Shown here in pieces: positions 31,167 to 55,282 of a stretch of DNA of 64,000 nucleotides (position 1 is its first letter; the number at the start of each line of letters is the position of its first letter). The notes below the pieces were generated by a model. It did no database searches and was not told where the DNA came from. It saw only the letters and a program-made list of their open reading frames with translations. Position numbers and translations under genes: made by a program. This DNA is from Sedimentisphaerales bacterium (GTDB lineage: Bacteria; Planctomycetota; Phycisphaerae; Sedimentisphaerales; Anaerobacaceae). The stretch lies in the NCBI GenBank assembly GCA_963708075.1, contig OY970194.1, positions 5,600,001 to 5,664,000 of the forward strand. The letters run 5' to 3'.

Positions 31167-31587
31167 AGAGACTATCTCAAGACCGCACTCCGGCTTGTCA
31201 TTGCGAGCGTGGCGAAGCAATCTCCCACGCATAGGATTGAGATTGCCTCGTTGCTGCGCTCCTCCTAAGAAAACAGGTTGGGTTCGTCCCAAGTTGTTGA
31301 GTTTTGGGTGGCAGCGTCAAGCGCAGCTTGGCGATGGTCTTGCCCATTCGCCATCGCCAAGGCCTTCGGCCTTGACGCTGCCACCCGACTGCACAGCTTG
31401 CACAGGCTCGATCTCAAGGATTTGGGACGAACCCAACAGGTTTGGCCAAGAACGGGACGAGTTGGTGTAAATACCGGGTACATCTTGAGTTACAGGGGGA
31501 CTCGTCACAGAGGCTGTTTCTTCCCGATACCAGCCGCCCAGCGGCGCAGGGACTCGCAATGACATTCACCGTTTTGAGACAGTCTCT
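31167..31587. mobile_element. Nested non-autonomous MITE/REP composite
   Basis: Concentric IRs at 31167-31180/31574-31587, 31197-31207/31553-31563, 31277-31292/31422-31437 and 31306/31386. Confidence 0.7.
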
Positions 31588-52151: not shown

Positions 52152-52184
52152 CAGGCGTTGAGCTCAGGAAATTGCCTGCCCTTC

Positions 52185-52263
52185 GGGTGCCATGTCTACG
52201 CTTGCGTAGACATGTTCCACTCGATGGGCAAGGCATGCTTACGCGAGCGTAAGCATGGCACCC
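52185..52263. repeat. Family B REP-like double hairpin between convergent genes
   Basis: Matches 22645-22722. Confidence 0.88.
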
Positions 52264-52296
52264 GCATGGGCGTGACGTGCGCGAGAGCCGGGACGT

Positions 52297-53194
52297 TCAT
52301 TTATGATCGGCCCGGCCCAGCCACGCCTCGGATTTGCATTGTTGCGTCCAGGCCCGCAGCGCCTGGAGCGATGCGGTCAGCGTGTCGATTCCGCCGCGCG
52401 CAGAAACTCCGACGGAGGGACTTCGAGAATGATCCGACCGTCAAAGTCATTGAGGATCAGAAGCCTGAGGAAGTCCTTCCAGGGGACAGTGTTATAGACG
52501 AGCGGCTGGTGGTCGTCGCCGCAGACGTCGTGGCAATGGACGTGCCCGATGCGCGGATCAGCGCCTGCGGCGGATGGAGCGGCCAGCCGTAGCGGCGAGC
52601 GTTCCAGTATGCATGCCCGAAGTCCCAGCACGCCACCGCGTCCGTCGCGATCGAGATCTCCAGCAACTCCTCGTATGTGTCGCCGATGCGCTGCCTCGGC
52701 TCATCGGCGTTCGGGCTGATCTGCAATTCCACCGCAACGGCGACATCGGGGACATTGTCGCGGCACCAATCGTGGGCCCACGTGAAGAATGAGATCGATT
52801 GGTCAAGGAGATACCGCCTGGGATCGGCGGATACGCCTGCCGCCGCGTGGATGTTGACGACCGTCGGGAATTGTTGCCGCCGGGCGGCCTCCGCAGCCAG
52901 AAGGAAGAATCGCTCGTGCAGGGCCCGGCAGGGATTCTCCTCCTCAGGCGAGAAGCACACCGGATTGAAGACGGTGCCCTCGGAGTAGGGATGCAGCGTC
53001 ACCTTCAGCCCCGCATCGACGCACCGGGCGATGTGGTCCTGCAGTACCGCCGTCTCGGTTTCCGGCCCGACCGGCGTCTCCACCACCTCCACGCCCAGTT
53101 CCCTCAGGAACGGCAAAATCTCCCGGCTGCCAAACAGCCGCTGGTAAACCTCATCGTGCGAAAACCCAATATCGAATTTCAGTCCTATCAGCAT
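52297..53194 (-). CDS. Sugar-phosphate isomerase/epimerase (xylose-isomerase-like TIM barrel); two frameshifts (~52553, ~52396); probably leaderless
   Basis: 'AVELQ','CWDFGHA', then in shifted frames 'IGHVHCHD...DHQPL...FDGRIILE' and 'GGIDTLTASLQALRAW'. TATAAT at 53201-53206 lies just before the ATG at 53194. Confidence 0.7.
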
Positions 53195-53260
53195 CGGCCC
53201 ATTATAGCGACCGTCCCCGCCAAACCAAGTGGCTGGCTCGTCCCCGCGACCCATCGCCGC

Positions 53261-53917
53261 AAATTGGCTTTGTTTCGCAGAACCGGCCCTGCCTGCTTCT
53301 GTCATTGCGAGCAGCACAGCGACGAAGCAATCTCAGGCGACTGCATGAATTGGCTTTGTTTTTCACACAGGCACTATCCGTGCTTTCTTTTATAACTCCT
53401 TTCCCCGTCAGCAGTTGCCCGTTGTCTGTACCTCCTGCAAATTGGCTTTGTTTCGCATTATCCTCTCTCGCTGCGCACGTGACATCGCCTCCCGTGACCC
53501 AGGTCTCCCATCTTCCCCACATTTGGCTTTGTTTCGCGCAGTAGGGTGAACGTCCCCGTTTGCTCCGGTGGTTGTGCAAGGCCACAGCCCGGAATTGGCT
53601 TTGTTTCGCGTCATCGTCTCTCCACGCGCATGGGACATTCGCGTTCCATGACCCAGATCCCCCATCTTGCCCAAGTTTGGCTTTGTTTCGCAAAGTCGGG
53701 TGAACGTCGCCGTTTGCTCCAGGTCCGCGTGCCGGGCCGCCGTCCGGAAATTGGCTTTGTCTCGCAGAATCGCCTGCTGAGTTCGCGGCGATCTCGTCTC
53801 GGCCATGTCTCCCATGCGCAATTGGCTTTGTTTCGCACAATTGATCCCTCGCCATCACGGCTCGTCGCCAGCGTGGCGACGAAGCCGTCTTGGCCGTCGA
53901 GATTGGCTTTGTTCCTG
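53261..53917 (-). repeat. Regularly interspaced short-repeat array (9 x ~TTGGCTTTGTTTCGC; minus strand GCGAAACAAAGCCAA); no cas genes
   Basis: Repeat cores start at 53264, 53350, 53442, 53523, 53595, 53677, 53751, 53822 and 53903. Confidence 0.92.
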
Positions 53918-54125
53918 CGTCTGGGTGATTTGAGGTTGCCTTCATGTCTCACGCAGAGACGCAGGAATGGACAGTGTGAAATCCGGTTCGGTCCCGCCCT
54001 TGTCGGCGCCTCCGCGTCTCTGCGCCTGAATTGGGTTATGGTCCAAGGCTCCACTGCCCTCTCGGGATGGCGGTGGCGAGAAGCCCAGACGTGCCGCTTG
54101 CGATTCTCTATTCAGTTGTGCAGCA

Positions 54126-54154
54126 ATCGTACAGGAACACCTGTTCTGTGTCAA
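54126..54154 (-). promoter_or_regulatory. Near-consensus sigma70 promoter facing the array, with a palindrome in its spacer
   Basis: Minus strand TTGACA-17 bp-TACGAT; GAAC-ACCT-GTTC at 54135-54146. Confidence 0.72.
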
Positions 54155-54232
54155 GTGAAATACCAAGAATCTGGAACTTTATTTGGCTGCCCGGGGAAGA
54201 AGGAGCCGTCCTCAGGTGTTCTCCGGACACAA

Positions 54233-55282
54233 CTACGATGATGGTCCGGTTGGGCCCCTGCCCAGAATCGCCTCAAGCCTCTTGTGGAGGAGATTTCGCA
54301 GTTCCGTGATATTCTTGTACTCAGGAACATTGTGTACAGAAAGATCGAAGTGCAATCTTGTACCATGCTTTCGATAGAGAATTGGCCGTTTCTGCATTGC
54401 ATGGGCATAGCCAATTTCATAATAGACGTTCGGCCGCTCATAGGACAAATCTGCTATCAGCAATTCGCAGAGCGCTATTTCAGACAAGATCAGGTCGGTG
54501 ATTCTATCTTGATGTTGAATCTCATCGGCTCGGTAGGCGCGTACGCCGAACGAGACACACACCCGCTTGATGGTTTCATAGACATCTTCCAGTTCGGCGT
54601 TCTCAGGGTCCATCGGCATTAGGACAAAAGCAGTACCCTTCTTTATCTCCTGACGAAGCGGCGGTGACGGATTGTAAGAGACATAGTGGGTTGGTTGCCA
54701 CACTTGCCCGGAGAGAATCGTTCCAGGAAAATCCGTAGTATGCAGCGTGTAGGCCACGGAATTCTCTGCACGCCTTTCATAGTACTGTTGCATGAGTGGC
54801 TCTAAGCCTTCGAACGCAAGGTAAGCATCGTAGGCGTCGTCGCCATTAAGGGTAATAGACAAAAGTCCCGCTGACCCGGACCTTCCACTTCCCCCCGAGT
54901 AGAAACCCCCAAGACCAGATAGATTCTCTAACGCTATCTCAGCTTCTGTTTCTGGCAGTTGAACCATCTCAGACAGTCCCTTGGCGGTTATTGTCTCAAT
55001 GCCAGGTTGTTCCACTATGAGATCGCGAATCTTGAAGATCACCCGTTCAAGGTTCTTGAGTACAGGGGAATCGGGATCTACTTTCCAGATCCCGAGTATT
55101 GTCAGTTTCTTCCCGTTGAGCAGAAATCTGCTGTCGACCTTCTTAGGATCAAAGCCCCTCGGTAATTTGTCGCATAGCGTGACTTTTGCTATCTTTGGGT
55201 CAAACTGGGTGTCCTGATAAACAGCCTTGAGCCATGTAATGTCAGCCTCAGATAGCGCGTGGTCTTTGAATGACGAACTCAT
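54233..55282 (-). CDS. Hypothetical protein with C-terminal nucleoside 2-deoxyribosyltransferase/TIR-like domain
   Basis: 'AFVLMPM...AYRADEI...ITD.IL..I...LLIADLS.ERPNVYYEIGYAHA...HFDL'; visibly lower GC than the flanks. Confidence 0.72.
   Translation of the reverse strand: MSSSFKDHALSEADITWLKAVYQDTQFDPKIAKVTLCDKLPRGFDPKKVDSRFLLNGKKLTILGIWKVDPDSPVLKNLERVIFKIRDLIVEQPGIETITAKGLSEMVQLPETEAEIALENLSGLGGFYSGGSGRSGSAGLLSITLNGDDAYDAYLAFEGLEPLMQQYYERRAENSVAYTLHTTDFPGTILSGQVWQPTHYVSYNPSPPLRQEIKKGTAFVLMPMDPENAELEDVYETIKRVCVSFGVRAYRADEIQHQDRITDLILSEIALCELLIADLSYERPNVYYEIGYAHAMQKRPILYRKHGTRLHFDLSVHNVPEYKNITELRNLLHKRLEAILGRGPTGPSS

Follow-up and report, generated by a model that had tools for sequence, protein, structure and literature searches.

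The nine short repeats at positions 53264..53917 (minus strand) of the window, i.e., the 64,000-nucleotide stretch of a Sedimentisphaerales bacterium genome that was analysed, represent a single copy of a repeat family that has no name, is dispersed over the genome and is linked to an uncharacterised multi-copy gene, which is referred to as STGPRT, a label coined here from a conserved motif in this gene. New is a conserved module of approximately 90 bp, in which a core, a TAA-N19-TTA palindrome and a second core follow each other at fixed spacing. We regard it as an even call that the arrays of this family serve as binding arrays for the STGPRT protein together with an IHF-like bender on a mobile element. 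In the literature searched, which covered few subscription journals and no supplementary tables of preprints, neither a description of the repeat family nor a match to the motif and the peptide strings was found.

At the locus, the first-pass annotation had described nine same-orientation repeats with periods of 86, 92, 81, 72, 82, 74, 71 and 81 nt, and all of these were recovered, the cores starting at 53264, 53350, 53442, 53523, 53595, 53677, 53751, 53822 and 53903. On the minus strand, the unit reads (G)TGCG-AAACAAAGCCAA-TT (consensus of the 288 cores of the genome). Six of the copies in the array are exact and three carry 1-3 mismatches. The whole window holds 12 core matches at up to three mismatches compared to 1.36 expected, and 12 matches were reached in 0 of 100 shuffles. 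The proposed A-B-A'-B' duplication of two units (53459..53747, minus strand) was confirmed by spacer and repeat comparison: identity within the two spacer pairs amounts to 76% and 77%, whereas all 28 pairs average 51%, and the four repeats within the duplicated units are identical to one another. The A spacers carry REP-like GTAG hairpins at approximately 53541-53563 and 53695-53717, and the last spacer contains the strand-less palindromic repeat GTCATTGCGAG (53298..53335), whose palindrome, earlier suggested to be shared with position 31197, was indeed found at 53301 and 31197 and has 44 copies in the genome. Four DNA sequencing runs yielded no contig across the array, and the joints found derive from other arrays.

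A scan of the genome and its relatives for core clusters, as suggested in the same annotation, revealed the extent of the family. In the 7.5-Mb genome, 248 exact copies of the 12-mer are present where 0.34 would be expected, 7 of them outside arrays, and allowing one mismatch results in 43 same-orientation clusters with 288 cores in this genome, among which the array studied here is cluster A34; three cluster pairs resemble single loci split by insertions. The core is 15-18 nt long and the units, over 251 of them, measure 23-269 nt. Of 23 other genus members, 13 contain the exact 16-mer, which was found in none of 17 more distant relatives. Within a 251-genome sample of the phylum, for which no more than 12 candidates per genome were scored in the gene search, high core counts were seen with the strict pattern in this genome and in one other (G036) alone. 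The clusters are spread around the chromosome with a median gap of 119 kb, without a replichore bias (16/43) and without a tRNA link (tRNA association in 1/43 arrays), and no dif-like site was recovered. All arrays of this genome run in one direction relative to their leader, 12 of the 43 clusters show a promoter score of at least 9/12, and the array strand contains 38% G and 25% C compared to 30% and 27% in co-oriented intergenic DNA. The helix phasing of the unit lengths is overall not significant (P=0.09). The next gene downstream is co-oriented in 31/43 clusters, a count that depends on crude gene calls (77% coding).

Next to the cores, the spacers were analysed. Matches elsewhere in the host genome were found for 120 of 230 spacers compared to 53 of 230 random intergenic pieces, and spacer families are common to and reordered among arrays, with 115/230 spacers falling into one similarity cluster. 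The 19 kb of spacers contain 50 REP-like GTAG/GTGG hairpins, compared to 170 in 148 kb of intergenic DNA elsewhere; of the 50, 43 lie on one strand and 7 on the other. The spacers also contain 7-nt tandem repeats. The spacer search suggested earlier was thereby productive for the host genome, in which the genome's own palindromic repeats were matched, and gave nothing meaningful for phages and plasmids: this array yielded only short matches or one widespread palindrome in the phage and plasmid sets, and beyond this palindrome no match was significant. The spacers look like duplicated filler carrying the palindromic repeats of the genome. The genome carries 13 Y1 transposase matches. Among the resident repeats, a large palindromic REP-like element of a family with approximately 205 copies lies at 52184-52264 of the window, 3' of a PEP-CTERM gene. 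A further family of approximately 144 copies has a sharp common end and is often located just before host promoters (e.g., G000:C1:1539541). This family caps six gene-bearing arrays, and the sharp 3' end of the gene-bearing copies, considered as an element terminus, was ruled out since it is the end of this repeat family.

The array is spanned by an open frame of 247 aa (53202..53945, minus strand) that had been noted before, is present and has no Pfam match. Among gene-less arrays with at least four cores, an open frame spans 5 of 28 compared to 3.5-5.6 by chance in three null models, and as this rate is at chance level the 247-aa ORF needs no explanation. The periods of arrays without the gene are distributed over the three reading frames (81/56/70). 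Both results support the earlier view that conservation acts on the nucleic acid and not on a peptide. For the gene-bearing arrays, the frame was found open in 6/6 against 0.8-2.5 expected, three of the six being close duplicates. As a separate observation, the STGPRT frame runs through the entire array in A7, A12, A13, A15, A16 and A38, and these arrays end in one common C-terminal peptide despite having cores in different frames.

Nine of the 43 clusters adjoin the STGPRT gene and form its 3' tail. There are 1-24 matches to this multi-copy gene per genome in 22/23 genus relatives; outside the family, it was found in just 3 of 16 genomes of the order. In a representative library, STGPRT comprises 38,569 clusters at 50% identity (E<=0.001), counted with a profile that includes translated tail sequence. 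The copies differ most at third codon positions, as expected for a real gene. STGPRT could not be assigned by Pfam, NCBIfam, PHROG or structure, a DNA-binding or catalytic domain was not recognised in it, it has no Rep family match, the PDB sequence search was empty, and annotated phages gave no match. Within the PHROGs, weak scattered matches were obtained, one member of 114 matching a small terminase with E=0.018. The structural model is all-helical (pLDDT 88), without a fold match at E<=0.001 and with a best Z of 8.2 to generic coiled coils. The linkage to the core extends beyond the genus. Among the best 80 of 555 loci, which derive from Planctomycetota, Acidobacteriota, Alphaproteobacteria and others, a forward core is located in the gene tail in 55/71 scorable loci (59/71 in either orientation), upstream of the gene in 0/72 and far downstream in 3/69; the exclusion of Bryobacteraceae core matches at gene position +309 had reduced the first count from 60/72 to 55/71. 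Similarly, in relatives the core is linked to the gene tail in 18/20 loci. Two distant homologues, L033 on a viral contig and L221 in G251, show a single core 30-65 nt upstream of the gene start, and another viral contig of phage-like appearance (L030, 36% GC) encodes a full-length STGPRT homologue of 146 aa with neither tail nor core.

The module itself lies at 53350..53456 (minus strand, 92-nt period) in this array. Its palindrome, a strand-less, IHF-site-like element of the TAA-N19-TTA type termed Z (53393..53417), is weak, scoring 13.1 bits with CAA replacing TAA, and is placed 36 nt after the first core and 31 nt before the second. Genome-wide, the palindrome spacing peaks at 19 nt, with 247 sites compared to 53-116 at other spacings, and there are 179 strong sites in the genome against 7 in shuffles. 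One palindrome lies inside 17/43 arrays and none inside 26/43, and in 20/43 arrays a palindrome is present within 1.4 kb upstream. The distance from the first core to the palindrome is 34-36 nt in 15 of the 17 arrays, and that from the palindrome to the second core is either 21-22 nt (6 arrays) or 30-31 nt (11 arrays), two classes that are approximately one helical turn apart. In other genomes, 23/63 core spacings amount to 88-92 nt and 14/63 to 10-11 nt; the 88-92-nt module recurs in loci of Phycisphaerae and Pirellulales, where it is often followed by cores in 10-11-nt tandem. Moreover, inverted cores are present in 10/20 loci of relatives, and the gene-less modules of G036 mix orientations, with head-to-head and convergent cores. 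For positions 3-8 of the palindrome arms, neither a pairing excess nor covariation as an RNA stem was detected; a single inner pair out of nine reached P=0.016. Elsewhere in the genome, the symmetric TAA-N19-TTA motif is mostly intergenic and often located shortly before promoter-like sequence.

The genome encodes three HU/IHF genes, two of which score best to IHF-beta, below the cut-off, and both IHF-beta-like proteins show an R-x-E-x-R stretch, which we take to be the TTR-reading triad of IHF-beta. Two beta-like subunits would explain why the palindrome is symmetric. Its profile places the TT and AA steps at a distance of 9 bp, with AAnnnnTTA in each arm; of 162 distinct sites, 115 contain TAAnnnnTT in one arm and 55 contain TAAnnnnTTG. 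The palindrome thereby matches the kink spacing (AA/TT steps 9 bp apart) and the AAnnnnTTR element of IHF sites, as these are defined in the available excerpts of two studies (PMC1874591; 10.1101/382655). The full WATCAA element of IHF sites is absent, the positions before the AA being weakly conserved and the palindrome symmetric. The TAA-N19-TTA motif is a candidate site of a beta-type IHF dimer. The fixed IHF geometry, the missing RNA covariation and the inverted and 10-bp tandem cores together suggest that the module is a double-stranded DNA site and not a guide RNA.

Upstream of the array, a sigma-70-like promoter, TTGACA-17-TACGAT (54126..54154, minus strand, score 10/12), is directed into the array; the promoter scan at the locus gave 2 sites compared to 0.8 expected. 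It is part of a leader (54060..54176, minus strand) that is common to other gene-less arrays and to the STGPRT genes of two relatives (L079, L068). In an alignment judged by eye, which comprised seven gene-less arrays and the STGPRT leaders of the two relatives, the promoter aligns with seven other array leaders. The leader also contains a strand-less palindromic repeat element (53944..54025) that is multi-copy in this and related genomes. Transcription of the array from the promoter-like site is plausible. This array lacks the STGPRT gene, yet promoter and leader are kept, and from its sequence it is to be regarded as a gene-less derivative of an STGPRT element.

The array is located upstream of a host gene of 245 aa (52457..53194, minus strand), which is conserved in 14/15 genus relatives, has a TATAAT 6 nt before its ATG and gave no Pfam or NCBIfam match. 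None of the 11 orthologous loci of relatives carries an array upstream of this gene, one locus having just 103 nt of upstream sequence, and three of these relatives carry arrays elsewhere; from this absence at the orthologous site in 11/11 relatives, the array is a lineage-specific insertion. On the other side, a low-GC gene (49%; 54233..55282, minus strand) shows a weak nucleoside 2-deoxyribosyltransferase-like match below the cut-off and was probably acquired. It encodes 349 aa, has its own promoter-like site, and carries the 2-deoxyribosyltransferase-like match at its C-terminus; as a guess, it is possibly a defence gene. Low-GC DNA is present upstream of 20/38 arrays and downstream of 2/38, five small or split clusters of the 43 having been left out of this comparison. 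For other repeat families, the corresponding upstream values are 0-18%, and one low-GC control defined by very long gaps in the gene calls, a circular control, reaches 45%. Within the genus, the arrays lie at the boundaries where acquired low-GC DNA meets core genes. At the STGPRT elements, neither a terminal repeat nor a target duplication was found, and no mobilising enzyme was identified for the element. In four of five relatives, a portal-capsid cluster follows the ribokinase-family gene that is located beyond the upstream low-GC gene here.

STGPRT and the phage small terminases match at the N-terminus, over residues 2-46 of STGPRT (99%; a profile match limited to 45 columns). In ten viral loci, from which eight distinct proteins were aligned, this N-terminal motif lies at the start of a gene whose immediate downstream neighbour is a gene of approximately 600 aa; this neighbour scored as large terminase in 3/5 cases tested and was followed by a portal gene in 2/2. 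Among the eight motif-bearing viral proteins, one is above the PF05119 cut-off and another four show weak matches; the STGPRT proteins have no match to PF05119 (Terminase_4 oligomerisation domain). The phage terminase loci sharing the motif contain 0 cores in 7/8 and one core in the remaining locus, none of the nine STGPRT copies is near the large terminase of the genome, and the model of the phage small terminase is poor, with a pLDDT of 54. For HK97, the N-terminal arm of the small terminase is described as contacting DNA in the excerpted text of the source (PMC11331095). STGPRT thus has a probable DNA-contacting module in common with small terminases, without being a small terminase itself.

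Furthermore, the genome contains a domesticated phage module (G000:C1:6070075-6071658, L186; 6089386-6089808; 6095125-6110243) with an intact orphan large terminase, an HTH small-terminase-like gene and a portal-scaffold-capsid cluster, the latter adjoined by a divergent HTH/ATPase/ParB-like operon. The large terminase of this genome was found with PF17289 and missed by phrog_2 and PF03237. The orphan large terminase is intact in 39/41 relatives and the capsid gene is present in 34/41; both the terminase and the portal-capsid cluster are near-universal and single-copy in the order, and all 16 same-order genomes outside the family carry the terminase. The small-terminase-like gene lies directly before the large one in three relatives (G033, G039, G041) and has a homologue in this genome. 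With a small-terminase-like gene already belonging to the domesticated system and STGPRT found in just 3/16 of these genomes, STGPRT would be at most an optional redirector, a role to which the PICI protein Rpp, as excerpted (PMC6739421), is comparable. In another relative (G005), the motif upstream of array L057 (G005:C9) is nearly identical to that before the portal gene (L165, G005:C43), a hint of shared regulation of array and portal gene; the portal leader of the genome studied here lacks this motif.

Taken as a binding array on a mobile element, the explanation that we put at even chances, the dispersed element would consist of an optional palindrome, a promoter, the STGPRT gene and a tail with core sites. 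The core would be a double-stranded DNA site, most likely bound by STGPRT protein supplied from the gene-bearing copies, and the embedded palindrome would be the site for an IHF-like bender, which folds the DNA and thereby brings two cores together, as in lambda cosB. In the genus, an ancestral two-core module may have grown into arrays by unit duplication and uptake of the palindromic repeats of the genome, which would make the spacers filler. The complex would most likely serve the element's own spread or recombination, with a catalytic partner acting in trans. This explanation covers the fixed geometry of the module, the varying core orientations among relatives and the gene linkage across phyla; the small-terminase-like N-terminus of STGPRT, the absence of the array at the orthologous site and the low-GC DNA upstream of arrays also speak for it. 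Of the options given in the first-pass annotation, the iteron-like protein-binding array fits best. However, a pure DNA site would not need promoters kept in gene-less copies, and the G-rich array strand, the lack of overall helix phasing and the clusters without a palindrome also argue against it. The same holds for the near-absence of cores from the phage terminase loci with the shared motif, for the failure to recognise a DNA-binding or catalytic domain in STGPRT or to find terminal repeats, a target duplication or a mobilising enzyme, and for the weak palindrome of this copy. Promoter retention and the uniform orientation within this genome are less well accounted for by a DNA site and keep alive a possible, though distinctly less probable, scenario, in which the promoter makes a CsrB-like sponge RNA of approximately 0.8 kb that would sequester an RNA-binding protein, possibly STGPRT, at its A-rich cores. 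The G-richness of the transcribed strand and the identity of repeats between duplicated spacers that are just 76-77% alike are consistent with such an RNA. However, in 10 arrays with 4 shuffles each, the cores were no more unpaired than with shuffled spacers and the folding energy showed no consistent excess over the shuffles; the inverted, head-to-head and 10-bp tandem cores as well as the two spacing classes fit DNA better, and the palindrome does not covary as a stem.

It is rather unlikely that the modules are cos/pac-like packaging signals to which STGPRT, like PICI Rpp or SaPI TerS, redirects a terminase, either that of the domesticated capsid/terminase system of Phycisphaerae or that of an infecting phage. 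The modules would then be dispersed cosB-like signals read by a host-encoded, small-terminase-derived protein, and the chromosome would be packaged from dozens of sites. The shared N-terminal motif, the cosB-like succession of repeat, IHF-type site and repeat, the widely conserved orphan terminase and capsid genes and the distribution of arrays around the chromosome all speak for this possibility, but homology ends at residue 46, the domesticated system has a small-terminase-like gene of its own, STGPRT is rare in the same-order genomes outside the family, all of which carry the terminase, and gene and core also occur in phyla beyond those surveyed for this terminase. Still less probable are near-neutral repeat mosaics, in which gene conversion or unequal recombination among the 43 arrays keeps the cores alike, those of gene-less copies being functionless of themselves. 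Shared and reordered spacer families and the location of the arrays in repeat-rich intergenic DNA would be expected of such mosaics; however, the 11-nt core and the 90-nt module are retained in several phyla, duplicated spacers have diverged by about a quarter next to cores that remain identical, and promoters are kept. Very improbable is a Cas-less guide array or a repeat protein translated from the 247-aa ORF, notwithstanding the repeat-spacer look behind a promoter and the open frames of the gene-bearing arrays, as Cas1 was not found, unit length is variable, the spacers consist of host repeats without foreign matches, and open frames in gene-less arrays are at chance level. The first-pass proposal of guide- or antitoxin-like RNAs of approximately 80 nt, processed from a transcript, is not supported, given the spread of unit lengths, the origin of the spacers and the lack of an Rfam match at gathering level and of a consistent folding excess.

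Several known systems resemble the arrays in part. CsrB/RsmZ-type sponge RNAs are promoter-led, multi-copy and contain many short motifs in variable sequence as well as GGA-loop hairpins. The arrays share the former features, but lack GGA-loop hairpins, an Rfam match and a folding signal, and relatives contain inverted cores. A plasmid iteron origin, in which tandem iterons lie beside a Rep initiator and an AT-rich unwinding element, was rejected, as the array is flanked by a host gene on one side and a low-GC gene on the other, and the linked protein has no Rep match. CRISPR arrays consist of a near-constant repeat of approximately 23-47 nt and spacers of similar length, which are unique and match foreign DNA. 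The statement that the array is not a canonical CRISPR was upheld by its 15-18-nt core, its 23-269-nt units and its spacers, which are partly duplicated within the array and match the host's own repeats; Cas1 was not found in the genome, which is 92.8% complete. CRISPR, TIGR and VIPR arrays, which likewise alternate a conserved repeat with variable sequence behind a promoter, have periods of 60-79, 18 or 5 nt according to the excerpt of a comparative source (10.64898/2026.10.21.760802), and differ from the family described here in its wide range of periods, its host-repeat spacers and the absence of a Cas1 match.

As far as the excerpts of the cited sources extend, the closest analogues would be the NIME arrays, lambda cosB and BIME-1, each of which fails on a defining feature. 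NIME of Neisseria, called Neisseria-specific, combine the 20-bp inverted repeat dRS3 with RS elements, and are similar as dispersed intergenic arrays of one short repeat with spacers of many families and inserted repeats; they were proposed to be recombinase sites that vary neighbouring genes (PMC1797815). In contrast to NIME as described there, the core found here is non-palindromic and one-directional and comes with a linked gene family, a promoter and a fixed IHF-like module. Lambda cosB has the layout R3-I1-R2-R1 (PMC4669245). The array family resembles cosB and the PICI Rpp system in that an IHF-type site is flanked by repeats at fixed distance, that relatives contain repeats in mixed orientation, and that the linked protein has a motif in common with small terminases (PMC4669245; PMC6739421). 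Judged against these partial descriptions, the array family has no cosN or cosQ, no adjacent large terminase and no winged-helix domain, but dozens of chromosomal copies and variable spacers. In BIME-1 of E. coli, a REP and an inverted REP are separated by an IHF-bearing linker (PMC3333891). The arrays share with the REP/BIME-1 elements, as excerpted, the intergenic mosaic, the IHF site between two repeats and, in the spacers, the GTAG-footed hairpins, and differ in that the palindrome is flanked by cores and not by REPs, the REP-like elements being passengers.

As this array is one of many copies, the value of the single locus is limited. Through the family, a very large unassigned group of STGPRT proteins gains a candidate DNA target and an IHF-like layout that is conserved across phyla, and the docking of proteins on bent DNA, for which the sites appear to be laid out, may serve the spread of the element or DNA packaging. 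If the modules were packaging signals, they would tell what the GTA-like particle of this lineage packages, and this would constitute a site-directed gene-transfer or packaging-hijack system over several bacterial phyla. Moreover, as border marks of low-GC DNA, the arrays may shape gene uptake in the genus.
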